NCBI GenBank assembly: GCA_963717965.1
Contig: CAVQXS010000001.1
Coordinates: forward strand, 2,755 to 66,754
Length of the DNA: 64,000 nucleotides
From: an uncultured Thermoleophilia bacterium
GTDB taxonomy: Bacteria; Actinomycetota; Thermoleophilia; UBA2241
Direction: 5' to 3'
The notes beneath the pieces are model-generated. The model did no database searches, was not told the DNA's origin, and saw only the letters and a list, made by a program, of their open reading frames with translations. The position numbers and the translations under genes were made by a program. Below, in pieces: positions 5,781-59,000 of the stretch (its first letter is position 1; the number at the start of each line of letters is the position of its first letter).

Positions 5781-5925
5781 GCCACCGCGCCAACTTCGCC
5801 GAGGAATCCGTCATGGCGACGCCGGGGCCGCCCGCGCCGCCGGTCATCGCGGCCCCGAGGTTTGACTAGGCCACCGCGCCAACTTCGCCGAGGAATCCGT
5901 CATGGCGACGCCGGGGCCGCCCGCG
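5748..5925. repeat. Tandem direct duplication, 2 x 89 bp, one mismatch
   Basis: Unit cgccggtca[c/t]cgcggccccgaggtttgactaggccaccgcgccaacttcgccgaggaatccgtcatggcgacgccggggccgcccgcgc occurs at 5748..5836 and 5837..5925. It covers the last codons and TAG of the LuxR gene. Confidence 0.85.
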
Positions 5926-6025
5926 CATACTCGATGACAGGTCGTGCGCCCGCTGTTGTGCTCCACGTCCGGGGCCGTCTATGGTGGGCCGAGCACGAGG
6001 CCGAGGCCGAGGAGGACGTCGCCCG

Positions 6026-7459
6026 ATGCAGACGCAGATCCAGGTCCTCTCCGAGGACGAGAAGGCGCAGGTCCACGAGCGCACGCTCACGGTGCTGAGC
6101 ACCGTCGGCATGCGCTGCGACACCGCGGAGGGGCGCCGGATCCTCGCCGCCGCCGGCGCCCTCGTCGACGAGGGCGCGCGTAGGGTCCGTTTCCCGCCGG
6201 AACTGGTCGAGAGCCTGCTGGCGCGGGCCACGCGGCGGTTCACCGTGCACGGGCGGCGCCCGGACTGGAGCTTCCCGGTGGGCGCCGGCGCCTTCACGCT
6301 CCTGGCGGACGGCGGCGCCACGGCGGTCTTCGACACGACGACCGGGGAGCGCCGCCCCACCACGGCCGGCGACTGGCGGGCGGCGACGCGGCTGCTCGAC
6401 GCGCTGGACGACGTCGGCTTCTACTGGTGCCCCACCGATTACGCCGCGGACTACGAGCAGCCCGGGGGCTTCGTGCGCTACTACGCCGATGTGTTCGGCA
6501 CCTTCGGCAAACACGTCCAGGACTCGTTCGGGACGCCCGAGCTGGCGCCGTGGCTCAAGGAGGTCCTCGATATCGTCTTCGGCGGGCCCGAGACGGTGCG
6601 CGCCCGCATGCCGCTGTCGTTCCTGATCACCCCGGCCTCACCGCTGACCATCGAGCACGACTACACGCAGACCTGGCTCGAGCTGCGCGACTACGGCCTG
6701 CCGGTGGCGGTGATGCCGATGCCGCTGCAGGGCGCGACCGCGCCCGGCAGCCGGCTCGGCACCCTGCTGGCCGCCAACTGCGAGACGATCGGCACGCTGT
6801 GCCTCGTCCAGGCGGCCGCGCCCGGCACGCCGGTGTTCTACGCACCGGTGGTGGCGACGATGGACCCGCGCACCGGGCTCTACGCCGCCGGCGCGGTGGA
6901 GCACGCTGTCCTCTCGGTGGCAGGCACGGAGATGGCCCGCTGGTACGGCCTGCCGGCCGAGTCCTCGGGCCTCTGCACGCAGACCTACGAACCGGACCTG
7001 CAGACCGCCTGGGAGAAGGCGAACGGCGGCCTGCTCACCGTCCTCGCCGACCCGGACGTGCTCGTCGGCCCCGGACTGCTCGGGGGCGCCACCATCCTCT
7101 GCCTCGAGCAGATCGTCATGGACGTCGAGGTCGTCCGGCGCGCCCGGCAGGCCAGGACCGGCGTGCCGGTGCGTGACGACCTGTGGCTCGACGAGGTCCT
7201 CGACACGGTGGGACCGTGCGGCTCGTTCCTCGGCGAGCGCTCGACCCGCAGCGGCGTGCGCAGCGGCGAGTGGCGGCTCAGCGACTACGGCGTCCAGGGC
7301 AGCTGGGACGCGTGGCGGGTGGCGGGGTCGCCGACCACCGTCGCCGCCGCCCGTGAGCGCGTCGAGAGCATCCTCGCCGGTCAGGTCTCGCTGCCATATA
7401 GCGACGACCAGGCGGCGGCCCTCGCGGCGCTGCAGCGCCGCGCCGACGCCGCCTCGTAG
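6026..7459 (+). CDS. MttB-superfamily methyltransferase without in-frame TAG (non-pyrrolysine member; substrate unknown)
   Basis: 477 aa from MQTQIQVLSEDEKAQVHERTLTVLSTVGMRC..., with GAGGAGG upstream. Collinear by eye with the TAG-containing MttB at 33775, for example LPAESSGLCTQTYEPDLQTAWEK versus LPSYIAGA-TAG-GDSKLGDAQTGHEK. Confidence 0.85.
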   Translation: MQTQIQVLSEDEKAQVHERTLTVLSTVGMRCDTAEGRRILAAAGALVDEGARRVRFPPELVESLLARATRRFTVHGRRPDWSFPVGAGAFTLLADGGATAVFDTTTGERRPTTAGDWRAATRLLDALDDVGFYWCPTDYAADYEQPGGFVRYYADVFGTFGKHVQDSFGTPELAPWLKEVLDIVFGGPETVRARMPLSFLITPASPLTIEHDYTQTWLELRDYGLPVAVMPMPLQGATAPGSRLGTLLAANCETIGTLCLVQAAAPGTPVFYAPVVATMDPRTGLYAAGAVEHAVLSVAGTEMARWYGLPAESSGLCTQTYEPDLQTAWEKANGGLLTVLADPDVLVGPGLLGGATILCLEQIVMDVEVVRRARQARTGVPVRDDLWLDEVLDTVGPCGSFLGERSTRSGVRSGEWRLSDYGVQGSWDAWRVAGSPTTVAAARERVESILAGQVSLPYSDDQAAALAALQRRADAAS

Positions 7460-8905: not shown

Positions 8906-10430
8906 CTACGGGCGGATGACGACCGACATCCCGATGACCACCCTCGAGTAGAGGTCCTCGACCTCCCAGATGTGCATGCGGATGCAGCCGTGCGACGCGT
9001 AGGTGCCGATCGAGGAGTCGTCGGGGGTGCCGTGGATGCCGACGCCGGGGGCGCTGGTGCCGATCCAGCGCGTGCCCAGCGGGTTGTCGACGCCCGGAGG
9101 GATGGGCTTGGCGTCCTTCGCCCAGTCCGAGTTCGGCGGGAGCCACGTGGGGTTCATCTGCATCGAGGTGACCACGTACGAGCCCGTGGGCGTGGGATAC
9201 GCGGACTGGCCGGTCGCCACGGGGTAGCTCTTCACGAGCGCGCCGTTGCGATACAGGTACAGACGCAGGTCGCCGATGTCGACGACGATCTGGCCGCTGA
9301 GCGCGGTGAGCACGTTCCCGCCGACGATGCCGTCGACCTCGAGGCCGTACTTGGCCTGCAGCTTGCGGACGGCCTTCTCCGTGTCGGAGTCGTAGAATCC
9401 GCGACTTCTTGCCCGAGTACACGTCCGCGTTGATGAGCTTGGACTGCAGCTCCTTGACATCCTTGCCGCGAGCGCCGGGCCACAGCGTCGCCGAGCCAAA
9501 GCGCTCGGTGCTGTCCACGACGAAGGACTGCTTGTCGGTCACGACGTTGCCGCCCTTGTCGGCGGCGGTCACGACCACGGTGTGCCGACCCTGGGCGAGG
9601 TCCTTGACCTTGAATCGGGCCTTGGAGGCCGGGCCCGTCAGCTCGCGCTCCTCGCCATCGAAGACGAGCTTGACCGCGGGCACGCCGAGCTGGTCGGTGG
9701 CCTTGACGCGCAGCGTGACGGCGGCGTGCTTGACGGTCTTGTCGAGCTGCGTGGTCTTCAGGGTGGGGGGCACGGCATCGACGAAGACGCGGAGCCTCTT
9801 GGTCGTCGCGTTGCCGGCCCTGTCGGCCGTCGTGATCTCGACGCTGGAGGCGCCTTCGGGCAGATCGGCGCTCACCGCGTAGGCGCCCGCGGCGTCCGCC
9901 GTCCCGCTGGCGGTGATGGCGCCGTCGACCACGGTGACCGTCGCGTACGGCTCCGTCTTGCCGCTGAAGGTGGCGGGGTCGGTGTTGATGCGGCCCTCTT
10001 CCGCGCCGCCCTCGAGCTTGAGGGTCGGGATGCGCGTGTCGACGGTGAAGCGCCAGTCTTTGCGCACGTCGTGGCGGAAGAGGTTGGAGCTGGTCGCGCT
10101 GAAGGCGACGGCGTGGGCGCCGTCGGCGAGCTCGCCGGTGGTGAACGTGAGCGTATCTCCCTCGAAGGTGGCGGCGGCGGTGATGTCTTCGCCGTCGAGG
10201 GTGACGGCCATGTCCTTGAGCTTGGACAGCCCGTTGACGTTGAGGACCACCGTGGGCGAGGGGCTCTTGACGTACGTGTCCGGGCCGGGCGTCACCGCGG
10301 AGACGCGGGGGACGCCGTAAAGCTGCCAGCCAACGACGGCCGCGAACACACAAACCGCCGCAACGACGATGTACGGCCAGCGGCGGCGGCGATGGTCAGT
10401 TCGATACAGTTGGTACTGAGCGTCCGGCAC
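8906..10430 (-). CDS. Membrane-anchored L,D-transpeptidase (YkuD) with Ig-like repeats and a peptidoglycan-binding domain; one frame change near 9400
   Basis: GTG start with a TM anchor. PG-binding TEKAVRKLQAKYGLEVDGIVG. Catalytic GIHGTPDDSSIGTYASHGCIRM. N- and C-terminal parts lie in different frames. Ends in TAG. Confidence 0.8.
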
Positions 10431-10588
10431 GGGCCCCTTCCTGGACGATTCTGCTCCTCATTATAGCGTGGAAATCGGCATTGTCCTCATCTTCCTGAAG
10501 CCCCGCCATGGGACGTCCGTCCAGACGTGCGCGCGAGGCGCGGGCGCCGGCGGGCAGGAAACCGCCCTCGGGCGCATAATCTCCGTCC

Positions 10589-11359
10589 ATGGATCATTCC
10601 CTCGACGATCTCCTCGCCGACGTCGCCGCCGGGCGGCTCGCCGCGGCCGACGGCGCCGAGCGTCTGCGCCGCCTTGGTTACGTCTCGGTGGGCGACTTCG
10701 CCTTCCTCGACGTCTCCCGCGCGGCGCGCAAGGGCGTGCCCGAGGTGGTGTACGCCGAGGGCAAGTCCGTCGACCAGGTGGTCGCCATCGTCCGGCGGTT
10801 CCTCGAGCACAACGCCGTGGTCCTCTGCAGCCGCGTCTCGGACGAGCAGGCGGCCGCGCTCGCCGGTGCCGCGGACGGCGCGGTGGAGCACGACCCTCGC
10901 AGCAGGGTCGTGATCGTGCGCCGCGCGGACGCGCCGCCGCCGCAGGTGCGCGGCGCGGTCGGCGTCCTCGCGGCCGGCACCAGCGACGTCGCCGTCGCCG
11001 GTGAGGCGGTCGCGATGATCCGCGCGATGGAGGTCGACGCCGTGACCGCCTTCGACGTCGGCGTCGCCGGGCTGCACCGGCTGGCCGCGCCGCTCGACGA
11101 GATGCGCGCCGCCGCGGTCGGCGCCGTGGTCGTCGCGGCGGGCATGGAGGGCGCCCTGCCCTCGGTCGTCGCCGGCCTCGTCGCCGTCCCCGTGATCGGC
11201 CTGCCGACCTCGACCGGCTACGGCTTCGGCGGCCGCGGTGAGGCGGCGCTCATGGGCATGCTTCAGAGCTGCAGCCCCGGCCTGGCCGTGGTGAACATCG
11301 ACAATGGGGTCGGCGCCGGCGCCACCGCCGCCCTCATCGCCCGCGGCGCCGCCGGATGA
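10589..11359 (+). CDS. larB: LarB-like, PurE-related nickel-pincer cofactor biosynthesis carboxylase/hydrolase
   Basis: 256 aa with RKGVPEVVYAEGKSVDQVV, AGTSDVAVAGEA, AAGMEGALPSVVAGL. Size and pattern fit COG1691/LarB. Confidence 0.75.
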   Translation: MDHSLDDLLADVAAGRLAAADGAERLRRLGYVSVGDFAFLDVSRAARKGVPEVVYAEGKSVDQVVAIVRRFLEHNAVVLCSRVSDEQAAALAGAADGAVEHDPRSRVVIVRRADAPPPQVRGAVGVLAAGTSDVAVAGEAVAMIRAMEVDAVTAFDVGVAGLHRLAAPLDEMRAAAVGAVVVAAGMEGALPSVVAGLVAVPVIGLPTSTGYGFGGRGEAALMGMLQSCSPGLAVVNIDNGVGAGATAALIARGAAG

Positions 11360-11787
11360 CCTCCGTCGCCTTCGTGCTCCGCGACCACCGCGATGAGCTG
11401 TGGCGACGCTGGGCCGGCGCGCTCGACGAGCGCATCGCGGCCGACTACCGCGAGCTGATGAGCAGCCCCCTCGGCGAGCGCTTCGTCCGCGCCTTCCTCG
11501 ACGACCTCGTCGCCTGCAGCCAGGCGGAAGAGTACGAGGTGCCGGCGCTTCTCCGCAACGCCGGGGAGCGGATCGCCGCCGATGCCGCGAATCGTCTGTC
11601 GCTCGGGTTCACAGCCCTCGACCTCGTGATGGCGCTGCAGGCGCTCCGCGGGGCCATCGTCGACGTGCTGATCGACGCGCTCGTGCTCGGCGAGCTCCCG
11701 TCCTTCGCCGAGACGCTCGAGCAGCTCAAGGACGCCGACGCCTTCATCGACCGCCTGGTCTGCGCGACGCTCGCCGCCGGGCGGTAG
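11356..11787 (+). CDS. Hypothetical protein, possibly RsbR-N-like sensor globin fold
   Basis: 143-aa ORF overlapping the larB stop (ATGA). Helical. Weak resemblance only. Ends in TAG. Confidence 0.45.
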   Translation: MTSVAFVLRDHRDELWRRWAGALDERIAADYRELMSSPLGERFVRAFLDDLVACSQAEEYEVPALLRNAGERIAADAANRLSLGFTALDLVMALQALRGAIVDVLIDALVLGELPSFAETLEQLKDADAFIDRLVCATLAAGR

Positions 11788-11855
11788 CGGCCGCGTCCGC
11801 CGGACCGCTCGCGCGGCGGGTTGCGCCGTCGGGGGGCCGCCAGTAGGCTGCGCGC

Positions 11856-12926
11856 ATGCTGCGGCTGGCACTCATCTTCGGTGGCCGCTCGGCGGAGCAC
11901 GAGATCTCGCTGGCCTCCGCGCGCTTCGTCTTCGAGATGCTCGATCGCCAGAAGTACGAGGTCGTCCCCGTGGGCATCACGCAGGCAGGCCGCTGGGTCC
12001 TGCCGGATGACTTCGAGACCGCCGTCACCGAGGGTCTCGACGCCGCGCCTTCGCAGCAGGTCCACCTCGTCTCCGACCCGTCGCGGCCGGGACTGCGGCT
12101 GGCCGACGGGTCGTTCCGCCCGCTCGACTTCGCCTTTCCCATCATGCACGGCACGTTCGCCGAGGACGGCACGATCCAGGGCCTCCTCGAGATGGCCGGC
12201 CTCGCCTACGCCGGGTCCGGCGTGGTGGCCAGCTCGGTCGGCATGGACAAGGAGCTCATGAAGGCCGTGTTCGCGAGCGCGGGCCTGCCGCAGATGGACT
12301 ACCTGGTGCTGCGCGACGCCGCGGCCACGGGTGCGGACGCGGTGGCCGCCGTCGAGGCGCGCCTCGCTTACCCGGTGTTCGTGAAGCCGGCCAACCTCGG
12401 CTCCAGCGTCGGCATGACCAAGGCCCACGACCGCGCCGAGCTGGGGCCGGCGCTGGACCTGGCCGCCGTCTACGATCGCAAGACGATCGTCGAGTCCGCC
12501 TGCGAGGGGCGCGAGCTCGAGTGCAGCCTGCTGGGCAACGACGAGCCGCGTGCCTCGGTCGCCGGCGAGGTCTTCCCGGCCAACGAGTATTACGACTTCG
12601 AGGCGAAGTACACCGAGGGCAAGATGGCGTTCACCATCCCCGCCGACGTCGACCAGCGCCATCACGACCGGGTGCAGGAGCTCGCGGTCGCCGCGTTTCT
12701 CGCCATCGACGCGAGCGGCTTCTCGCGCTGCGACTTCTTCCTCGAGCAGTCCACCGACCGCGTGATCCTCAACGAGATCAACACGATCCCCGGCATGACG
12801 GCGATGAGCGGCTTCCCGCGGCTCTGGGCGGCGTCCGGCATCGACGGCAGGGCGCTGATCGAGGAGATCGTGCGGCTCGGGCTCGAGCGCCGCGAGCGCC
12901 TCGCCCGGCTCAAGCTGGCGCGCTGA
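11856..12926 (+). CDS. ddl: D-alanine--D-alanine ligase
   Basis: 356 aa with LIFGGRSAEHEISL, FPIMHGTFAEDGTIQGLLEMAGLAYAGSG, VFVKPANLGSSVG, LNEINTIPGMT. Confidence 0.9.
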   Translation: MLRLALIFGGRSAEHEISLASARFVFEMLDRQKYEVVPVGITQAGRWVLPDDFETAVTEGLDAAPSQQVHLVSDPSRPGLRLADGSFRPLDFAFPIMHGTFAEDGTIQGLLEMAGLAYAGSGVVASSVGMDKELMKAVFASAGLPQMDYLVLRDAAATGADAVAAVEARLAYPVFVKPANLGSSVGMTKAHDRAELGPALDLAAVYDRKTIVESACEGRELECSLLGNDEPRASVAGEVFPANEYYDFEAKYTEGKMAFTIPADVDQRHHDRVQELAVAAFLAIDASGFSRCDFFLEQSTDRVILNEINTIPGMTAMSGFPRLWAASGIDGRALIEEIVRLGLERRERLARLKLAR

Positions 12927-24008: not shown

Positions 24009-25612
24009 ATGACCGACGATCGTGGCATATCGAGGCGGTCCTTTGTGAAGGGGGCTGCCGCGCTCTGCGGCGCAGCCGCCTGGGCAGCCCCATCCTCTCG
24101 GCCTGTGGGGGCAGCGACTCGACGAGCTCCGCGAGCCCGTCGGCGGCCGAGTCGCCCAAGAGGGGCGGCCACATCCGCTCCGGCGTCACGGGTGGCAGCA
24201 CCAAAGACTCGCTGGACGTGGCCGTCGCCTACCTCACCGAGCCGCAGATCGCGATGTCGTGGCAGTTGTACGACGCGCTGCTGGGCTTCGACCCGGAGCA
24301 CAAGCTGATCAACCTGCTGGCCGAGTCCTGGGAGGCCAACAGCGACGCCACCCAGTACACCGTGAAGCTCAAGCAGGGCCTCGAGTTCCACAACGGCAAG
24401 ACGGTGACCGCCGACGATGTGGTCTTCACCTACGAGCGCGTCTTGAACCCCAAGACCGCCGCCGCCGGCGTCGACCAGCTACGCGATCTGAGCCCCGGCA
24501 ACGTCAAGAAGCTCGACGACCTCACGGTCCGCTTCACGCTGGACAGGCCCAACGCGGTCTTCTGGGAGGCGCTCGCCTTCTTCCCCAACGGCATCGTGCC
24601 GGTGGGCTATGACCCCAAGCCGAACGGCGAGGGCTGCATCGGCACGGGGCCGTGGATCATCACCAGCTACCGCGCGGGCGAGCAGGCGGACTTCAAGCCC
24701 AACCCCAACTACTGGGACGTCGGGCCGTACGCGGACGCGCTCACCATGGTCCAGTTCGCCGACTCCACGGCGCGTCTCAACGCGCTGCTGGGCGACACCG
24801 TCGACCACATCGACCTCGTCGAGTCCGGACAGACGAAGGTCATCACGAGCAACCCGGAGTTCACGCTGCTGCAAGCCAAGTCGGGCGGCTGGGAGCCCAT
24901 CACCATGCGCATCGACCAGAAGCCCTTCGACGACGTGCGCGTGCGCCAGGCCTTCCGGCTCATCGCCGACCGCCAGCAGATGATCGACCAGGCGCTGGCC
25001 GGGTACGGCTGGCTGGGCAACGACATGTACGGCCAGCTCGACCCCGGCTACCCGCACGACCTGCCGCAACGCACGCAGGACATCGAGCAGGCCAAGTCAC
25101 TGCTCAAGCAGGCCGGCTACGACAACAACCTCACCGTGGTGTTCAACACCTCGGACGCGGTCGGCGCGGGCCAGGTGTCCGCCGCTCAGGTGTTCTCCGA
25201 GCAGGCCAAGCTGGCCGGTGTCACCATCGAGGTCAAGAAGCTGGACGCCGCCATATTCTACGGCGACAACTACGGGCAGTGGACGCTCGCCCAGGATTAC
25301 TGGGGCACACGCAACTACCTGCCGCAGACCACGCTCATCACTCAGCCCAAGGCGCCGTACAACGAGACCCACTGGAAGGACGCCGAGTGGCAGGCCATCG
25401 TCGACGAGGCGTTCAGGACGGTGGACGAGACCAAGCGCAACGAGCTGGTGAGCGCGGCCAACAAGATCGAGTACGATCGCGGCGGCCTGCTCGTGTGGCA
25501 GAGCAACGTGCTGCTGGACGCCTACAGCAACAAGCTCGGCGGTGTCATCGCCGATACGTGGGGCCAGTCCGCCTGCAAGAACCGCTACAACCTGATGTAC
25601 TTCAAAGCGTAG
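24009..25612 (+). CDS. ABC-transporter substrate-binding lipoprotein, family 5 (peptide/nickel/opine type); one frame change near 24080
   Basis: Twin-arginine start MTDDRGISRRSFVKGAAAL is in one frame. Lipobox ILSACGG and the family-5 body (LVESWEAN-like LAESWEANSDATQYTVKLKQGLEFHNGK) are in the next frame. Confidence 0.8.
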
Positions 25613-33774: not shown

Positions 33775-35244
33775 GTGAAGCGAAACCTGTTCGCCGGCGG
33801 TCGCCGCAGCGGCGGCCTCCGGCTCGACGTGTTCACCGACGCCGAGCTCCAGGACATCCACCTCGCGACGCTGGAGATCCTGGAGCGGACCGGCGTCTGG
33901 GTGGAGATCGACGAGGCGCTCGACATCTTCGGCGACGGCGGGTGCGTCGTCGACCGGCAGACGCGCATCGTGCGCATCCCGCCGCACCTCGTGGAGGACG
34001 CGATCCGCAGCGCGCCCGCCAGCATCACCCTCTGCGGCCGCGACCCGAAGAACGACATCGTCGTCGAGGCCGGACGCGTGGGCTTCAGCAACTTCGGCGA
34101 GGGCGTGATGGTGGTCGACCCGCACAGCGGCGAGCTGCGCACGTCGACCAAGCAGGACCTCGCCGACATCGCCCGCGTCTGCGACGCGCTGCCCAACGTC
34201 GACGTCTTCGAGATCGCCGTCGGCGCCGGGGACAAGCCGCCGGCGACGGCGTCTGTCCACAACCACGAGGCGGCGATCGTCAATCAGACGAAGCCGATCT
34301 CCGGCGGTCCGCTCGACGGCCGCGCGGTCAGGATCAGCCTGCGGATGCTCGAGGCGGTGCAGGGCAGCCCGGAGGCGGTGTGCGAGCGGCCGATGATGAT
34401 CATGGGCACCTGCCCCGTGAGCCCGCTGAAGCTCGTCAAGGACTGCTGCGAGATCGTCATCGAGGCGGCGCGTGCCGGCGTGCCCAGCTGCGTGCTCAGC
34501 ATGGCGATGGCCGGCGGCTCCAGCCCGGTCACGCTGGCCGGGACGCTGGTGACGCACAACGCCGAGGTGCTGGCCGGCATCGTGCTCTCGCAGCTCACCG
34601 AGCGCGGCAGCAAGGTCCTGTACGGGAGCTCGACGACGGCGATGGACCTCAAGCTGGCGGCCGCCTCGGTCGGCTCGCCGGAGCTCGCCCTGATCAGCGC
34701 CGGCGTGGCCCAGCTCGCCCGGCAGTACCGCCTGCCCAGCTACATCGCCGGTGCGTAGGGCGACAGCAAGCTCGGTGACGCCCAGACCGGTCACGAGAAG
34801 ACCCTCACGGCTCTCGTAGCGGCGTTGGCAGGGACCAACCTGATCTACGGCCTGGGGATGATCGAGTCGGGCGTCACCTTCGACTACGCGCAGCTCGTCA
34901 TGGACGACGAGCTCGCGAGCATGGTGAAGCACGTGGTCGGGGGAATCCGCGTCGACGACGAGGCGCTGGCGGTGGACGACATCGCCGCGGTGGGGTCGTT
35001 CGGCGACTTCCTGAGCCTCGACGCGACGATGAGGCACATGCGCGAGGCCTCGCAGCCGGAGCTGCTCGACCGCCGCGTGCGCGAGGACTGGGAGGCGCGC
35101 GGGAGCAGCGACCTCCACCAGCGGTCGCTGGAGAAGGCGCGCCACATCCTGGAGACCCATCACCCGGAGCCGCTGCCCGGCGACGTGCTGCGGCGCATCC
35201 GCGCGATCGTCGACGACGCCGACCGCGAGCTGGCCGGGGGCTGA
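33775..35244 (+). CDS. mttB: Trimethylamine methyltransferase MttB homologue with in-frame TAG (candidate pyrrolysine codon) at 34756..34758
   Basis: ORF 33775..34758 (327 codons, then TAG) and ORF 34825..35244 share a frame. Sequence stays protein-like across the gap: [46 protein letters not shown]. Joined length is 489 aa. GGGAGG lies before the GTG. Final stop is TGA. Confidence 0.85.
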
Positions 35245-37192: not shown

Positions 37193-38587
37193 GTGATGCC
37201 GGTGGAGGCGAAGATCCCCACGCGCATGGGCGATGGGTTCATGGTCGAGATGACGCGCAGCGAGCTGCGTGCCGACCTCGAGGACGCGACGCGGGCGGCG
37301 GCACGCAAGGCCAAGGCGCCGCCGCTCACTCCCGATGAGCTCGACCACCTGCTCGATATCTACGCCTCGCGCGCCGCCTTCACCGCCGTCGACATCGGCG
37401 ACCAGGTGGTCCTCAGCTGCGACGGCGGCGGCAGCAAGATGACCGGCACCGACCTGCTCGACCTGCTCGAGAGCGAGCAGCGCCTGGGCCAGGACATCCT
37501 CGAGCTCTGGCACATCGAGTACAGCTACAAGGCGATCAAGACGATCCTGCCGTTCCAGCAGCAGGTGATGCAGAACTGCCAGCTGATGATGACGGCGCCG
37601 GTGCAGTACGGCGCCCAGCCCAACCTGGCCTTCTACAGCAAGCCGGACGGGCCGGCGGACAACTGGTTCGAGCTGCTGCCGCGCGGCGAGATCGCCGGCG
37701 CCCGCGCGGCCATCGACGAGGCCATGGACCACGCCACCAAGGACTTCATCTACGTGGGCGAGGGCATGCTGGAGGCCGGCGCCGACGGCATGGACTTCGA
37801 CACCACCGGCGGCGCCGGCGACGCCGACTTCTTCAGCACGCTGCGCGCGGTGAAGCACCTGCGCGCGAAGTACCCGGACGCCGGCATCGAGGTCGGCATG
37901 GCCGGCGAGTTCGTGATCGGCGTGCACGGCGAGCTCGAGTGGGACGGCCGCCGGCTCGCCGGGCTGTGGCCGAAGGAGCAGCTCGAGGTGTGCCAGGACG
38001 CCGGCGCCACCATCTTCGGGCCGGCGGTCAACATCCGCACGGGCAAGAGCTGCGCCTGGAACACCGCCTACTCGATCACGGTGATGAAGCCGTGCATGGA
38101 CGTGGCCCGCATCCCCGTGCATCCCAACGTCGGCGAGGGCGTGGGCGGCGTGCCGGTGAACGGCTACCCGCCCGAGGACGCGGCGTCCCGGGCGGCCAAG
38201 GCGCACGTAGACCTGCTGCGCTGCGACGGGTTGTAGGTGGGCTCGGGTGACTCCAGAGGCATGGATGTCACCCACGCGCTCGCCGCGGGCATGGGCGGGA
38301 TGCGCACGGCCGGAGACCTGGTCGCGCGCATGCAAATGGCCCGCGGGATGCGCCTTCCGGAGGCGAAGAGCTACGTCGCGGACCGCCTCGGCTGCACCGT
38401 CCGCGACCTCAGCGACAGCTACGCGATGGAGCAGATCCGCGGCGAGAAAGGCCTGGGGCGGATCCTCGACCACTCCAACCTGCACCCGGGCGAGCCGAAC
38501 GCGATGATGGCCAAGTTCCGCATCGCCGAGCTGCTCGGCGTGCCGATCAGCTCGGTGGAGCGCTTTCGGGAGCTGGCGGGGCTGTAG
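37193..38587 (+). CDS. mtbB: Dimethylamine methyltransferase MtbB homologue with in-frame TAG (candidate pyrrolysine codon) at 38234..38236
   Basis: ORF 37193..38236 is followed without a gap by same-frame ORF 38237..38587. Blocks RMGDG, FDTTGGAGDADFF, AGLWP, LRCDGL-TAG-VGSGDS and RTAGDLVARMQ match my recollection of methanogen MtbB. Joined length is 464 aa. The terminal stop is also TAG. Confidence 0.9.
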
Positions 38588-39662: not shown

Positions 39663-41039
39663 TCAGGCGCCGATGAGCTTCTTGACGTAGGTCGCCCGCT
39701 TGCTCGGGCGACCCGTACGCGCCTCGGCGTCGTCGGCGCTGCCCATCGCCGCCAGGGCGACGTTGACGCCCAGCCAGCGCAACGGTTCCGGCTCCCATGG
39801 CTTGGAGCGGTGGCCCACCCACGGGAGACCCGTCAGCTCCGTCTGCTGCCCGAGGATGAGGTCGCGCAGGGTGCGGCCGGCGAGGTTCGTGGTGGACACG
39901 CCGTCGCCGACGTAGGCGCCGGCCCAGGCCATGCCGGTGGGCCGGTCAAGCCCGACCGTGGTGTACCAGTCGCGTGCCGCGGCGATGGCGCCGCCCCAGT
40001 GATGTGTCACCCGGGCGTCGCCGATGGCGGGGAAGAGCTCGGCGAGCAGCGCGCGGAGGTGATCCTGCACCTCAGGCACGCGCTCGAACGCTTCGCTGAG
40101 GCGCGAGCCGAAGTGGTACGGCGCCCCGCGCCCGCCGATCGCAATGCGCCCGTCCTCCGTGTGCATCGCATAGAAGATCAGGAAGCGGAAGTCGCCGAAC
40201 ACCTCGTGGCCGCCCCAGCCGACCTCGTCCCAGAAGGCGTCGGGGAGCGGCTCGGTGCCGATCATCAGCGAGTAGATCGGCACGACCGCGCGTTCGTAGC
40301 CGGGCAGCTCGGGGGTGAACGCCTCCGTGGCGCGCACGATGACGTCGGCGCGCACGTCGCCGAACACGGTGGTCGCGACGTGCGGTTCGATGCGGGTGAC
40401 GGGGGTGCGCTCGTAGATGGGCACCCCCAGGCGCTCGACGACGTCGGCGAGGCCGCGGGCGAGTCGGGCCGGATCGACGGCGGCGCCGTGCGGCGTGTAG
40501 CCGGCGCCGAGGCATCCGGCGACCTTGATGCGCTCGCGCATGTCGGCGGCGCCCAGCATGACGTAGTCGTCCTCGCCGAACCCCCACTCGCGTTCGTAGT
40601 CGACGGCTTCGCGCAGCCGCAGTAGTTGCACCGGCGTCAAGGCGAGGTCGAGCTGGCCGCCGAGGCGGAAGCGCGCGTCGATGCCCTCCTGGTCCACGAC
40701 GCGCGCGATCTCGTAGACCGTCTGGTGGAGGGCGCGCTGCTGGTCGATGACCGGCTGCCGGCCGTGCGTCTTCGCCGCGGCCTCGCGCGAGCCCGGGAAC
40801 GTGGTGTGACACCAGCCGCCGTTGCGCCCCGAGGCGCCGAATCCGGCGATCTCGCGCTCCAGCACGGCGACCCGCAGGCGCGGGTCGGCCTCCTTGAGGT
40901 AGTACGCCGTCCAGAGGCCGGTGAAGCCCGCGCCGACGACGGCGACATCGAACTCGGCGGGTCCGGGGAGCGAAGGACGCGGGGTCAGCTCGCCGGGGAC
41001 GCCGTCGAGCCACATGCTGCGCGCGCGGTAGTCAGTCAT
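39663..41039 (-). CDS. FAD-dependent oxidoreductase (DAO family)
   Basis: 458 aa with FDVAVVGAGFTGLWTAYYL and GASGRNGG. AGGAG lies before the ATG. Confidence 0.85.
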   Translation of the reverse strand: MTDYRARSMWLDGVPGELTPRPSLPGPAEFDVAVVGAGFTGLWTAYYLKEADPRLRVAVLEREIAGFGASGRNGGWCHTTFPGSREAAAKTHGRQPVIDQQRALHQTVYEIARVVDQEGIDARFRLGGQLDLALTPVQLLRLREAVDYEREWGFGEDDYVMLGAADMRERIKVAGCLGAGYTPHGAAVDPARLARGLADVVERLGVPIYERTPVTRIEPHVATTVFGDVRADVIVRATEAFTPELPGYERAVVPIYSLMIGTEPLPDAFWDEVGWGGHEVFGDFRFLIFYAMHTEDGRIAIGGRGAPYHFGSRLSEAFERVPEVQDHLRALLAELFPAIGDARVTHHWGGAIAAARDWYTTVGLDRPTGMAWAGAYVGDGVSTTNLAGRTLRDLILGQQTELTGLPWVGHRSKPWEPEPLRWLGVNVALAAMGSADDAEARTGRPSKRATYVKKLIGA

Positions 41040-41135
41040 TTTGGGCTCCTTCGAGGGTGCGGCAATCCTACCAAAGGGCCTCGAGCCAGACTGCGGAGGC
41101 GAGCACTCCCGCCGGGTTTGGCGCGTGGTACAGAG

Positions 41136-41765
41136 ATGACGGAGGTGACGACGATGAGCGCGAGCAGGTTCGTGGAGGCCTACGAGGGCACGCCGCCCTG
41201 GGACATCGGCCGCGCGCAGCCGGCGTTCGAGCGCGTGGCGGACGCCGGCCTCGTCACGGGGCCGGTGCTCGACGCCGGCTGCGGCACCGGCGAGAACGCC
41301 CTCTTCCTCGCCGCCCGAGGCTTCGAGGTCGTCGGCGTCGACGCGGTCGACGCGGCGATCGCGGCCGCGCGCGCCAAGGCGGAGGCGCGCGGCCTCAAGG
41401 CCGAGTTCCTGGTGCACGACGCCCTCTCGCTCGACGAGCTCGGGCGGCGCTTCGGCACCGTCGTCGACTCCGGGCTGTTCCACACGTTCGACGACGACGA
41501 GCGACGGCGGTACGTCGCTGCGCTCGCCGCCGTCACCGCGCTGCACGCCCGCGTGTTCGTGCTCTGCTTCAGCGAGCTCGAGAAGGGCGACGGCGGCCCG
41601 AGGCGGGTGACGCAGGCGGAGCTGCGCGAGGCGTTCGACCGGCCGCCCTTCCGCATGCTGCGCATCGAGGCGGCGGAGATGGCGACCAATCTGGACGGCG
41701 GCGGCCGCAAGGCGTGGCTGGCGAGCGTCGAGCGCGTCGCCGGGCCGCGGCCGTCGGGCGCGTAG
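41136..41765 (+). CDS. Class I SAM-dependent methyltransferase
   Basis: VLDAGCGTGENALFLAARGFEVVGVD motif I. About 209 aa. Ends in TAG. Confidence 0.8.
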   Translation: MTEVTTMSASRFVEAYEGTPPWDIGRAQPAFERVADAGLVTGPVLDAGCGTGENALFLAARGFEVVGVDAVDAAIAAARAKAEARGLKAEFLVHDALSLDELGRRFGTVVDSGLFHTFDDDERRRYVAALAAVTALHARVFVLCFSELEKGDGGPRRVTQAELREAFDRPPFRMLRIEAAEMATNLDGGGRKAWLASVERVAGPRPSGA

Positions 41766-45163: not shown

Positions 45164-45284
45164 GGCCGGATGATATCCCAGCCCCAGCCGGCCCCGGGCC
45201 GCCCGTGCGACGTTGACTCGATGCCGATGCGCGCCATACTCGTTGCAGAGCGGCTCGGCGTGACCATCCTTCCGGGGAGGCGTC

Positions 45285-45749
45285 TTGACGCGCAGGGGGT
45301 TCCTGAAGTGGCTCATCGCCGGCTTCGGCGTGGTCTCGCTCGCCGGCGTGCTCTATCCCATCGCGCGGTTCCTCAAGCCTCCCGCGGCCGTATCGGGAGC
45401 CATCGGCCAGGTCGCCAGCGTCGGCACCCTCGACACGTTTCCCGCCGGGCAACTGACGGCGGTCGTCGTCGGCGGACAGCCGGCCGCAGTCCAGAACATG
45501 AACGGGAAGTACACCGTGTACTCGCTCATCTGCACGCATCTGGGCTGCGTCCTCGCCATCACCGGCGACACCCTTCACTGTCCCTGCCACGGCAGTGAAT
45601 TCTCCGCCACGGGCACCGTCACCCACGGGCCCGCGACCCTGCCGCTGCCCACGTATCACTCGCAGACGCAGAACGACTCACTCCTCGTGGGCCCGATCGA
45701 TCTGAGCCGTGCCGCGTATCCGGCCTGGTATACGGGGGAGTTCGGATGA
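45285..45749 (+). CDS. Rieske 2Fe-2S subunit of the cytochrome bc/b6f-type complex
   Basis: Twin-arginine-like MTRRGFLKWLIAG, then CTHLGC and CPCHGS. Confidence 0.85.
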   Translation: MTRRGFLKWLIAGFGVVSLAGVLYPIARFLKPPAAVSGAIGQVASVGTLDTFPAGQLTAVVVGGQPAAVQNMNGKYTVYSLICTHLGCVLAITGDTLHCPCHGSEFSATGTVTHGPATLPLPTYHSQTQNDSLLVGPIDLSRAAYPAWYTGEFG

Positions 45750-46450
45750 GCACGACCGAGGGCACCGGCCCGGGGGCGCCCGGCGCTCCCATGCCGGCCG
45801 AGAAGGGCGTCGTCCCGTGGGTGGTCCGCCGCCTCGGGCTCACGGCCACGATGGAGGACCAGTACAACCGCATCGTGCCGATGCACGCGACGAACTACAT
45901 CTACTGCTTCGGCGGCATCGCCTTCGTCCTCTTCATCATCCTGGCGGTGACCGGCATCCTGCTGGCGGTGTACTACGAACCGACGCCGGACACCGCGTAC
46001 CAGAGCGTCCTCAACATCTCCACGCACGTGCAGTTCGGCTGGTGGATCCGCTCGATCCACCGCTGGGCGGCCGGCGGCATGGTCCTGCTCGTCTTCGTGC
46101 ACCTGCTGCGCGTGTTCTTCACCGGCGCGTACAAGGCGCCACGCGAGCTCAACTGGCTCACCGGCGTGGCGCTCCTCCTCATCACCCTGGGCTTCGGCTT
46201 CACCGGCTATCTGCTGCCGTGGGACCAGAAGGCGTACTGGGCGACCAAGGTGGGCACCGACATCGCCGGCTCGGTGCCCGTGATCGGCCACTTCCTGCTC
46301 GTGAGCCTGCGTGGCGGCGAGCAGATCAGCGCCGCCACCCTCGGCCGCTTCTACGACCTCCACGTGCTGGTGCTGCCGGCCGTCATCGTCGTCCTGCTCC
46401 TCGGGCACTTCTGGATGATCCGCCGCCACGGCATCTCCGGGCGGCTGTAG
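45746..46450 (+). CDS. Cytochrome b6-type subunit (N-terminal half of cytochrome b)
   Basis: 234 aa with FGGIAFVLFIILAVTG, IRSIHRWAAGGMVLLVFVHLLRVFFTGAYK, TGYLLPWDQ. Ends in TAG. Confidence 0.9.
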   Translation: MSTTEGTGPGAPGAPMPAEKGVVPWVVRRLGLTATMEDQYNRIVPMHATNYIYCFGGIAFVLFIILAVTGILLAVYYEPTPDTAYQSVLNISTHVQFGWWIRSIHRWAAGGMVLLVFVHLLRVFFTGAYKAPRELNWLTGVALLLITLGFGFTGYLLPWDQKAYWATKVGTDIAGSVPVIGHFLLVSLRGGEQISAATLGRFYDLHVLVLPAVIVVLLLGHFWMIRRHGISGRL

Positions 46451-46460
46451 GAGGGGCGTG

Positions 46461-46910
46461 ATGACGAAGAAGACACGCAGGGCGTACCCGACCAACGAAC
46501 CGCCGCGGTTCTACTGGGAGATGTGGCGCGACCCGGGGCAGGGCTACATCCCGTACTTCTGGGAGGAGCTCACGTCCCAGGCGATGATGTTCTTCCTCTT
46601 CCTCGGTGTGATCGGGGGCGTCGCGCTGCTCTGGCCGGCCGACCTGGCGCCGCAGGCGAACGTGCTGGTGACGCCGTCCGGCATCAAGCCCGAGTGGTAC
46701 TTCCTCGGGCTGTTCCAGCTGATCAAGGTGATCCCGGAGATCGCCGGGATCGTGCTCGTGGCGGTCGTCGTCCTGCTGATGGTGATCCTGCCGTTCGTGG
46801 ACCGGAGTCCCGAGCGCAATCCGCTGCGCAAGCCCGTGACGACGACGGTCGCCGTCATCGTCATCGTCGCTCTCATCGTCCTCACGATCTGGGGAGCGGT
46901 GACGCCGTGA
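46461..46910 (+). CDS. Subunit-IV-like protein (C-terminal half of cytochrome b)
   Basis: IKPEWYFLGLFQLIK motif with 3 TM helices. AGGAGG lies upstream. Confidence 0.85.
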   Translation: MTKKTRRAYPTNEPPRFYWEMWRDPGQGYIPYFWEELTSQAMMFFLFLGVIGGVALLWPADLAPQANVLVTPSGIKPEWYFLGLFQLIKVIPEIAGIVLVAVVVLLMVILPFVDRSPERNPLRKPVTTTVAVIVIVALIVLTIWGAVTP

Positions 46911-57858: not shown

Positions 57859-59000
57859 ATGGACGCGTCAATCATTCGTCAACGTCGGCTCGTCCTCATC
57901 GCCGCAGTGGTCGCTGCCGCCGTCTGTGCGGCGGCCGTAGCGTTCATCGCCGACGGCACGGCGGCGGCAGAGGCGTCGCCGGTGGCTGCGAAGCGGGCCG
58001 CGACTGAGTCCGTACTCGTCGTGCGCCGCGCCGTCGACCACGACGCTCTCTGGCTCCTCTCACCGGTCGACGGGACGCCGACGGCCGCCGGCGACCTGCC
58101 CGGCTTCGCCGGTTCCGTCGCCGTCTCGCCCGACGGGCAGAACGTCGCCTACCTGCCGGAGAACGGCGGCCCGCGGGTCTGGATCGGACACGGGCCGCTC
58201 GCGCCGAGGACGATCTAGCTGGTCCCCGCCGGTGTGAAGCGCGCCTACTCCTTCTGCTGGATCGACGCCAACCGGCTGCTGGTCTCCGGCGTGACCAGGG
58301 CGAGCGCCGGCTACTACAGCGGCCGGCTCTTCCTGGTGAACGCCGCGACCGGCAAGGTCCGCTCGTTCCGCGATCTCCTCGGGATCGAGCCGAGCGCCGC
58401 CGCGGCCGTCGGCAAGGTCGCGTACGTGAGGATCACGACGCTGGCGGCGGGAACGAGCGGCAGAGGGGCGACGGTTCGCGAGAGCCTCAAGGTGCTCAGC
58501 CTGAGCCACACCGGCTCGGGACGCACGGTATGGGCGGAGCAGTATCAGCTGTTCGCGGCCTACCGCGCCTTCTCGCAGCCACAGGTCTCACCCGACGCCA
58601 CGTGGTTCCTCACGGGCGAGACGGGCAGTGACGTGCGGGTCACCTATGCGATCCGCGATCGATACGGCTACCCGCTGCTGAAGCTCTTCTCGCCGGCGCT
58701 CCAGGCGGGCGCCGGCTGGGACGCCGCGGGGGGGCGGACGGCCTTCGCCGGCGTGACCGACGCGATCGGCGACTCCATCGCGTGCGTCTGGGTGTACGAC
58801 ACGATCGCGGGCTCGCTGACGCGCACGGCGCGCGGCCTGATCCCTCTGCCATGATCGACTCGCTCGCGTGGTCGCCATCGGGGCGGTTCGTCGCCAACAC
58901 CTTCGGGGCGGCCGGCGCCCGGCACAACCTCGTGCTGCCGGGCGACCTCACCTCGGTCACGGACCTGGGCAGGGGCCGGCTGCCCGTGTGGGTGCAGTAG
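57859..59000 (+). CDS. Membrane-anchored beta-propeller (TolB/WD40-like) protein interrupted by in-frame TAG 58216..58218 and a frame change near 58850
   Basis: AGGAGGAG lies before ATG 57859. ORFs 57424..58218 and 58234..58854 share a frame. Blade-like motifs (VSPDGQNVAY, VSPDATWFL, WSPSGRFVA) occur in all three pieces. Confidence 0.55.

Follow-up and report, generated by a model that had tools for sequence, protein, structure and literature searches.

A dimethylamine methyltransferase gene of uncultured Thermoleophilia with an in-frame UAG at the predicted pyrrolysine position

A gene at 37196..38587 in a 64-kb stretch of DNA (the window) from an uncultured Thermoleophilia (Actinomycetota) lineage is very probably a functional mtbB, coding for dimethylamine:corrinoid methyltransferase, whose in-frame UAG at 38234-38236 is decoded as pyrrolysine (Pyl); both the function and the decoding are predictions. 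An earlier note on this DNA, made from the sequence, had read the internal TAG in the same way. That reading is now supported by the family match of the product, by the position of the TAG on the Pyl column of the family model (column 356), by the presence of TAG in 62/62 other copies of the gene and by a pyl gene cluster in a close relative. Pyl-containing MtbB and the trimethylamine enzyme MttB are textbook cases from Methanosarcina. The pyrrolysine cassette is best known from methanogens and from a few anaerobic Firmicutes and Deltaproteobacteria, and the split pyrrolysyl-tRNA synthetase (PylRS) PylSn/PylSc is known from these two bacterial groups.

Translation of the window between 37193 and 38590 gave one frame, running from a GTG at 37193 to a TAG at 38585-38587, with TAG 38234-38236 as its sole interruption. 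The earlier note had described an open reading frame (ORF) at 37193..38236 closing at this TAG, continuation in the same frame to 38587 and a joined product of 464 aa, all of which agreed with the translation: the alternative GTG start gives 347 + 1 + 116 codons, and the ATG at 37196 gives 346 codons before the TAG and a read-through product of 463 aa. Every sequence block named there, that is, RMGDG, FDTTGGAGDADFF, AGLWP, LRCDGL*VGSGDS (the asterisk marks the TAG) and RTAGDLVARMQ, was found in the read-through translation. Both halves of mtbB bear the coding signature of this GC-rich genome (71% GC in the window), the GC content at third codon positions (GC3) being 0.97 in the 5′ half and 0.92 in the 3′ half. 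A long ORF on the opposite strand, with a weaker signature (GC3 0.79), was rejected as a shadow ORF.

The read-through product is assigned as a full-length MtbB. With X at the TAG it matched PF09505 (Dimeth_Pyl) at 510 bits (cut-off 25) over residues 8-459 and columns 4-462 of 463, and it scored 389.1 bits against TIGR02368, the NCBIfam equivalog for dimethylamine:corrinoid methyltransferase (cut-off 369.1). The Pyl column was mapped by scanning the N- and C-terminal fragments separately against TIGR02368, a model of 466 columns built on Methanosarcina MtbB. Residues 9-345 of the 346-aa N-fragment aligned to columns 7-354, and residues 1-112 of the C-fragment to columns 357-464. Because the N-fragment stops at column 354/355 and the C-fragment begins at 357, the TAG corresponds to column 356 of 466; Methanosarcina MtbB has its pyrrolysine at residue 356. 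The earlier note had expected the TAG at the Pyl position and had allowed that it might prove to lie outside that column. It lies on the column, and the Rfam RF02509 match described below also begins on the TAG.

When each GTDB species was represented by a single genome, a scan gave 64 mtbB loci. The aligned codon was TAG in all 62 other mtbB copies spanning the site (three of them in the Desulfobacterales locus L052), at protein identities of 48-97%, and a sense codon at the Pyl column was found in 0/62 copies of the MtbB clade. A search of 5.8 billion proteins returned 498 MtbB relatives, and nearly all of the best 120 were 336-346 aa long with 73-75% query coverage; such short, partial entries indicate truncation by gene callers at this very codon. 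Against 16 orthologues, the ratio of non-synonymous to synonymous substitution (dN/dS) was 0.07-0.26 over the 346 codons preceding the TAG and 0.10-0.29 over the 116 that follow, with no further stop after the internal TAG. Compared with the nearest relative, L002, the proportions of non-synonymous and synonymous differences (pN/pS) in the part after the TAG were 0.020/0.103, and this part measured 116 codons in 45/62 copies. The 116 codons past the TAG are thus under the same purifying selection as the codons upstream. The codon right after the TAG was GTG in the window and in 47/62 copies and GTC, GTT or GTA in the remaining 15/62; it is a Val sense codon and no conserved start. Because the TAG is kept in every copy and the downstream dN/dS is comparable to the upstream one, the observation is confirmed as real and the TAG as more than chance, which is what the earlier note had argued against a random nonsense mutation at this codon.

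The pylS genes of the relatives were found by an exhaustive HMMER representative search with the PylRS catalytic domain; P0255 was chosen among the representatives (Ala/Arg/Gly-rich, a composition of high-GC type), and its relatives were searched next. An earlier PylRS database search had Methanosarcina alone in its best 120 matches. When M. mazei PylRS (100% identical to P0121) was used as a tblastn query against the fetched mtbB loci, the sole match, in L049, proved to be a normal lysyl-tRNA synthetase. The pylSc gene P0509 lies in locus L067 on contig_4140 (506,942 bp), and the same contig carries locus L009, which is in full synteny with the window and whose MtbB is 94% identical to the window MtbB; about 240 kb separate the pyl cluster from mtbB. 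In L067, pylB, pylC, pylD and pylT follow one another in this order, and pylSn and pylSc lie a few kilobases away, each on a different strand (Table 1). The pylT of the L067 type includes the parts GGGGGGTCGATCGG...CTCTAAACC... in its sequence. A second pylSc, P0497, lies on contig_19728 (1,137,818 bp), also the contig of the mtbB locus L023, and a third protein, P0413, is named 'pyrrolysine--tRNA(Pyl) ligase large subunit [Thermoleophilia bacterium]' at NCBI. The Thermoleophilia lineage of these relatives therefore holds a complete Pyl system.

The two pieces of pylB in L067 (17060-18200) are probably the product of an assembly frameshift. Frameshifts in otherwise conserved genes were likewise seen in the mtbB loci L033, L038, L040 and L043, from MFD-named metagenome-assembled genomes (MAGs), and these too are probably assembly indels and not true pseudogenes. 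On contig_19728, which belongs to a second Thermoleophilia MAG, the L066 region (10001-12830) has pylSc beside a second mtbB copy (fragments of 344 and 86 aa) and an MTTB fragment; some genomes therefore have at least two mtbB copies, with pylS and mtbB more closely linked. Among the 54 mtbB loci scanned with ARAGORN, no Thermoleophilia locus had a tRNA-Pyl at a distance of up to 10 kb from mtbB; the Desulfobacterales locus L052 has a tRNA-Pyl gene just past its third mtbB copy.

About 2.5 kb upstream of mtbB lies mttB, which carries an in-frame TAG of its own and is assigned as a companion Pyl gene in the same module. The N- and C-terminal fragments of mttB scored 452.5 and 226.5 bits against TIGR02369 and aligned to columns 2-312 and 315-469, and its TAG at 34756 therefore corresponds to column 314. 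RF02510 (PYLIS_3, the pyrrolysine insertion sequence, PYLIS, of mttB) matched 34756..34855 at 63.7 bits and begins on this TAG. The mttB TAG is kept in 37 other loci, and non-Pyl MttB paralogues (~30% identity) have a Ser, Thr, Ile, Met or Cys codon at that position. It is hard to account for a TAG at the respective Pyl columns of two unrelated enzyme families unless UAG is decoded as Pyl.

In the mechanism that we propose, a split PylSn + PylSc encoded elsewhere in the genome would charge tRNA-Pyl(CUA) with pyrrolysine made by PylB, PylC and PylD, and the charged tRNA would compete with release factor at the UAG to give the 463-residue enzyme. The Pyl side chain would bind and activate dimethylamine. 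An MtbC-type corrinoid protein would accept the methyl group on its Co(I), and monomethylamine would be left. In a non-methanogen, a second methyltransferase would then hand the methyl group to tetrahydrofolate. The upstream mttB (TAG 34756) would act likewise on trimethylamine.

Several results weigh against this proposal. In the 64-kb window, ARAGORN found no tRNA genes, Pfam and NCBIfam searches found no pylS, pylB, pylC, pylD or corrinoid protein among the ORFs, and tblastn of Thermoleophilia Pyl proteins returned only a weak PurD match. Of the genes that the earlier note had proposed to look for, tRNA(CUA), pylS and pylBCD, none is therefore in the window, although pylT, pylSn, pylSc and pylBCD all lie on the mtbB contig of the syntenic relative; pyl genes in the window's own genome would be expected from its relatives. 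No chain matching MtbB was found by sequence search of the PDB, and the one ground for dimethylamine as the likely substrate is homology to Methanosarcina MtbB. Furthermore, TAG has not lost its role as a stop across the genome: the stops of the other ORF segments in the window, about 48, were TAG (11), TGA (37) or TAA (0), and mtbB itself ends in TAG in the window and in 36/57 orthologues (TGA in 18, TAA in 3). Because TAG serves as an ordinary terminator, that of mtbB included, UAG decoding must be partial or context-dependent. As in other Pyl-using bacteria, UAG must then carry two meanings here. The next in-frame stop past the mtbB terminator lies 38 codons on in the window and 8-74 codons on in most TAG-ending orthologues, and some C-terminal extension of MtbB past 38585-38587 is possible.

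The absence of pyl genes from the window would also fit a UAG that is read through without pyrrolysine, by a near-cognate or suppressor tRNA or after loss of the pyl cluster in this genome, with a canonical residue inserted. MttB-family paralogues with a sense codon at the Pyl column do exist, one of them at 5870-7459. Were Pyl dispensable, however, replacements would be expected in the MtbB clade as well, where sense codons were found in none of the 62 copies, and close syntenic relatives have the full machinery; we consider such a read-through very unlikely. Alternatively, the gene might be split into polypeptides of 346 and 116 aa that assemble without pyrrolysine, with the second initiated on the codon that follows the TAG. 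GTG, the codon found there in the window and in 47/62 copies, is usable as a start, but the GTC, GTT or GTA of the other 15 is unable to start translation, the relatives retain a complete Pyl system and, in the work of Krzycki and co-workers, the Pyl residue is said to be required for catalysis in characterised methylamine methyltransferases. This arrangement appears highly improbable. Finally, the TAG could be a true stop in a pseudogene or recent nonsense mutant, with 116 untranslated relic codons behind it. The window holds one such case, TAG 58216 inside another ORF, where four homologues have the Ser codons TCG/TCT. In mtbB, by contrast, even copies with as little as 48% identity have the TAG at this codon, and the downstream part, 116 codons long in 45/62 copies, is under selection equal to that upstream, without extra stops. 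TAG conservation and downstream selection have in practice already refuted this explanation, to which we give virtually no weight. Taken together, a universal TAG, a selected downstream part and a following codon that is no fixed start make both the pseudogene and the two-polypeptide gene very unlikely, and decoding of the UAG as pyrrolysine remains the explanation that we favour.

The RF02509 match downstream of the mtbB UAG spans model positions 1-100, position 1 being the T of the TAG. Among 44 distinct sequences, pairing reached 64% in helix 1 of the model, where most sequences leave four of the 11 pairs open, and 86% in helix 2; the match is due mostly to coding conservation. The 100 nt after the UAG in the window fold with a minimum free energy of -55.3 kcal/mol (z = -2.94). 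A hairpin at 38298-38333, 64-100 nt past the UAG, was 95.8% paired in 54 sequences (44 distinct). Three of its pairs were altered on both sides, all between third codon positions: 69-96 (GC 25, CG 14), 72-93 (CG 22, GC 9, others) and 75-90 (five pair types). The counts of double changes and of extra pair types were above nearly all shuffles (5/500 and 1/500) and all slid controls, in a test biased in favour of the hairpin by a structure derived from the window's own sequence. The dip in synonymous change after the UAG (0.16 vs 0.22 upstream, 48th of 424 blocks) was not significant. A conserved hairpin overlapping Rfam helix 2 is thus plausible, its function being unproven. We also considered a wider reading, in which one mRNA has an internal UAG read as Pyl and a terminal UAG read as stop, the downstream hairpin biases the internal UAG towards Pyl, and soil Thermoleophilia consume tri- and dimethylamine on a large scale through Pyl, as a sink so far overlooked. 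The lineage would be an abundant and possibly respiring one, the module being widespread in soil and peat Thermoleophilia MAGs and the window holding Rieske/cytochrome b genes. As a whole this wider reading is doubtful, and we put it forward tentatively.

Table 1. Coordinates of mtbB, its neighbours in the window and the pyl genes of a syntenic relative (locus L067)
Feature	Location	Strand	Details
mtbB, predicted dimethylamine:corrinoid methyltransferase	37196..38587	+	463 codons from ATG 37196, plus terminator TAG 38585-38587
In-frame UAG, putative pyrrolysine codon (residue 347)	38234..38236	+	TIGR02368 column 356; TAG in 62/62 other copies; Val codon next
Rfam RF02509 (PYLIS_2, mtbB pyrrolysine insertion sequence)	38234..38333	+	59.3 bits, gathering score 36
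Hairpin, extended helix 2 of PYLIS_2	38298-38313 / 38318-38333	+	columns 65-80/85-100; over codons for MRTAGDLVARM
mttB, predicted trimethylamine:corrinoid methyltransferase	33775..35244	+	in-frame UAG 34756-34758; TIGR02369 and Rfam RF02510
Two secreted-protein genes, between mttB and mtbB	35292-about 36000, 36014-about 37111	-	shared repeat motifs such as WPxNPWTG
Non-Pyl MttB-superfamily paralogue	5870-7459	+	PF06253 213 bits; TIGR02369 283 bits, below 525 cut-off
pylSc	L067		TIGR02367 322 bits (cut-off 178)
MtbC-like pyl_corrinoid protein, adjoining pylSc	L067		TIGR02370 229 bits (cut-off 215)
pylSn	L067		TIGR03912 123 bits (cut-off 51)
tRNA-Pyl, anticodon CUA	L067 14840-14912	-	ARAGORN
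pylD	L067		TIGR03911 192 bits (cut-off 150)
pylC	L067		TIGR03909 331 bits (cut-off 248)
pylB, two pieces	L067 17060-18200		TIGR03910 228 + 179 bits (cut-off 348)

The window was also scanned for a third Pyl gene by looking for further in-frame TAGs flanked by coding signal. TAG 58216-58218 (+), inside an ORF at about 57880-58854 (+) with coding signal on each side, was rejected as a Pyl site; the Ser codons mentioned above come from four metagenome homologues at 65-72% identity, and this TAG arose either by one nonsense change, C to A, or by an error of assembly; it might be partly suppressed in a Pyl-decoding cell. The ORF had no family match and codes for a membrane-anchored protein, possibly beta-propeller-like, a fold guessed from sequence. 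A candidate TAG at 24229 (-) was rejected as well, being antisense to a solute-binding protein gene. The MttB-superfamily paralogue at 5870-7459, in which the Pyl column is occupied by a Cys codon (TGC) and the terminator is TAG, probably acts on quaternary amines as an MtgB-type methyltransferase.

Close mtbB loci (84-96% MtbB identity) come almost all from uncultured Thermoleophilia or Actinomycetota MAGs. Their isolate names point to several metagenome projects, many with an MFD prefix, one being palsa_647 and one from Lac Pavin sediment. Matches at 48-50% MtbB identity are mostly from Desulfobacterales or Deltaproteobacteria MAGs, plus the Thermoleophilia paralogue locus L060. In many loci the gene order is kept as amino-acid permease, molybdopterin oxidoreductase, decarboxylase, unknown, mttB, two secreted proteins and mtbB, and beyond mtbB as membrane protein, flavin adenine dinucleotide (FAD) oxidoreductase, methyltransferase, alcohol dehydrogenase, unknown and EPSP synthase. 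This shared order shows that the module belongs to the chromosome and is passed on vertically, not carried on a mobile island. No other protein of the region is as well conserved as MtbB. The two secreted proteins had no Pfam or NCBIfam match; the pair is conserved at 42-74% in many Thermoleophilia loci and absent elsewhere, mttB and mtbB then abutting (L001, L025).

Downstream of mtbB, 39666-40961 (-) codes for an FAD-dependent amine-oxidase-like protein of the DAO family, whose best NCBIfam match was a putative aminophosphonate oxidoreductase, below cut-off, and about 41000-41765 (+) for an S-adenosylmethionine (SAM) methyltransferase whose CpaM-like match was weak. Most Thermoleophilia loci keep both genes beside mtbB, and the two may possibly be linked to methylamine metabolism. 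At 45264-46910 (+), a Rieske protein gene is followed by separate genes of cytochrome b6 type (N-terminal) and subunit IV type (C-terminal), a split that to our knowledge is unusual among Actinomycetota. These genes point to a respiratory chain in an organism that would also carry oxygen-sensitive corrinoid methyltransferases.

With Methanosarcina MtbB1-3 the window gene shares the full-length family match, the UAG at column 356, the mtbB PYLIS match and a Pyl-containing mttB partner. It differs in that the host is a 71% GC actinobacterium and no methanogen, and coenzyme M therefore cannot be the final methyl acceptor. Moreover, mtbB is not in an operon with mtbC, the corrinoid gene of the relative (L067) lying about 240 kb from its mtbB (L009), and the window mtbB itself ends in TAG. 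The bacterial split systems of Desulfitobacterium hafniense, Acetohalobium arabaticum and Desulfobacterales resemble L067 in their separate pylSn, pylSc, pylBCD and tRNA-Pyl(CUA), and TAG is still a normal stop elsewhere in the genome. Unlike in those systems, the L067 genes are scattered and the methyltransferase genes far off, with no single pylTSBCD-mtxBC cassette, and the phylum is Actinomycetota. The non-Pyl MttB superfamily, with the glycine betaine methyltransferase MtgB and its relatives, has a member in the window, the paralogue at 5870-7459, which stands outside the recoding. All in all, the departures from the classical picture, namely the phylum, the scattered layout, the two inserted secreted-protein genes and the TAG terminator, are of arrangement and not of principle.

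Pyl-encoding mtbB and mttB in Actinobacteriota have already been published, and the window gene is supported but not new. Actinobacteriota MAGs from Stordalen Mire, of the same phylum as the window, express the same two genes (Ellenbogen et al. 2023; PMC10805028), and two Actinobacteria carrying PylRS are listed by Guo et al. (2022; PMC9630628). These papers treat Pyl usage by Actinobacteriota in one-line reports from gene truncation and expression. The present analysis adds the mapping of the Pyl column, the selection test, the co-location of the pyl cluster with mtbB and the RNA covariation. An exact look-up of the MtbB N-fragment of the window returned no identical gene product. Our literature search found no paper treating Thermoleophilia Pyl usage in depth. 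Locus L025 (isolate palsa_647), with an MtbB 87% identical to that of the window and mttB directly upstream, has a name that suggests a peatland origin.

The field gains no new principle from this gene; its value is that of a well-documented example and of a reminder about split gene calls, for gene callers cut mtbB and mttB in two and pipelines consequently undercount these enzymes. For the biology of the lineage, the finding means that the pyrrolysine cassette is fixed and under selection in a widespread actinobacterial class of soil and peat, which would provide a route of methylamine turnover overlooked by pipelines and competing with methylotrophic methanogens for substrate.

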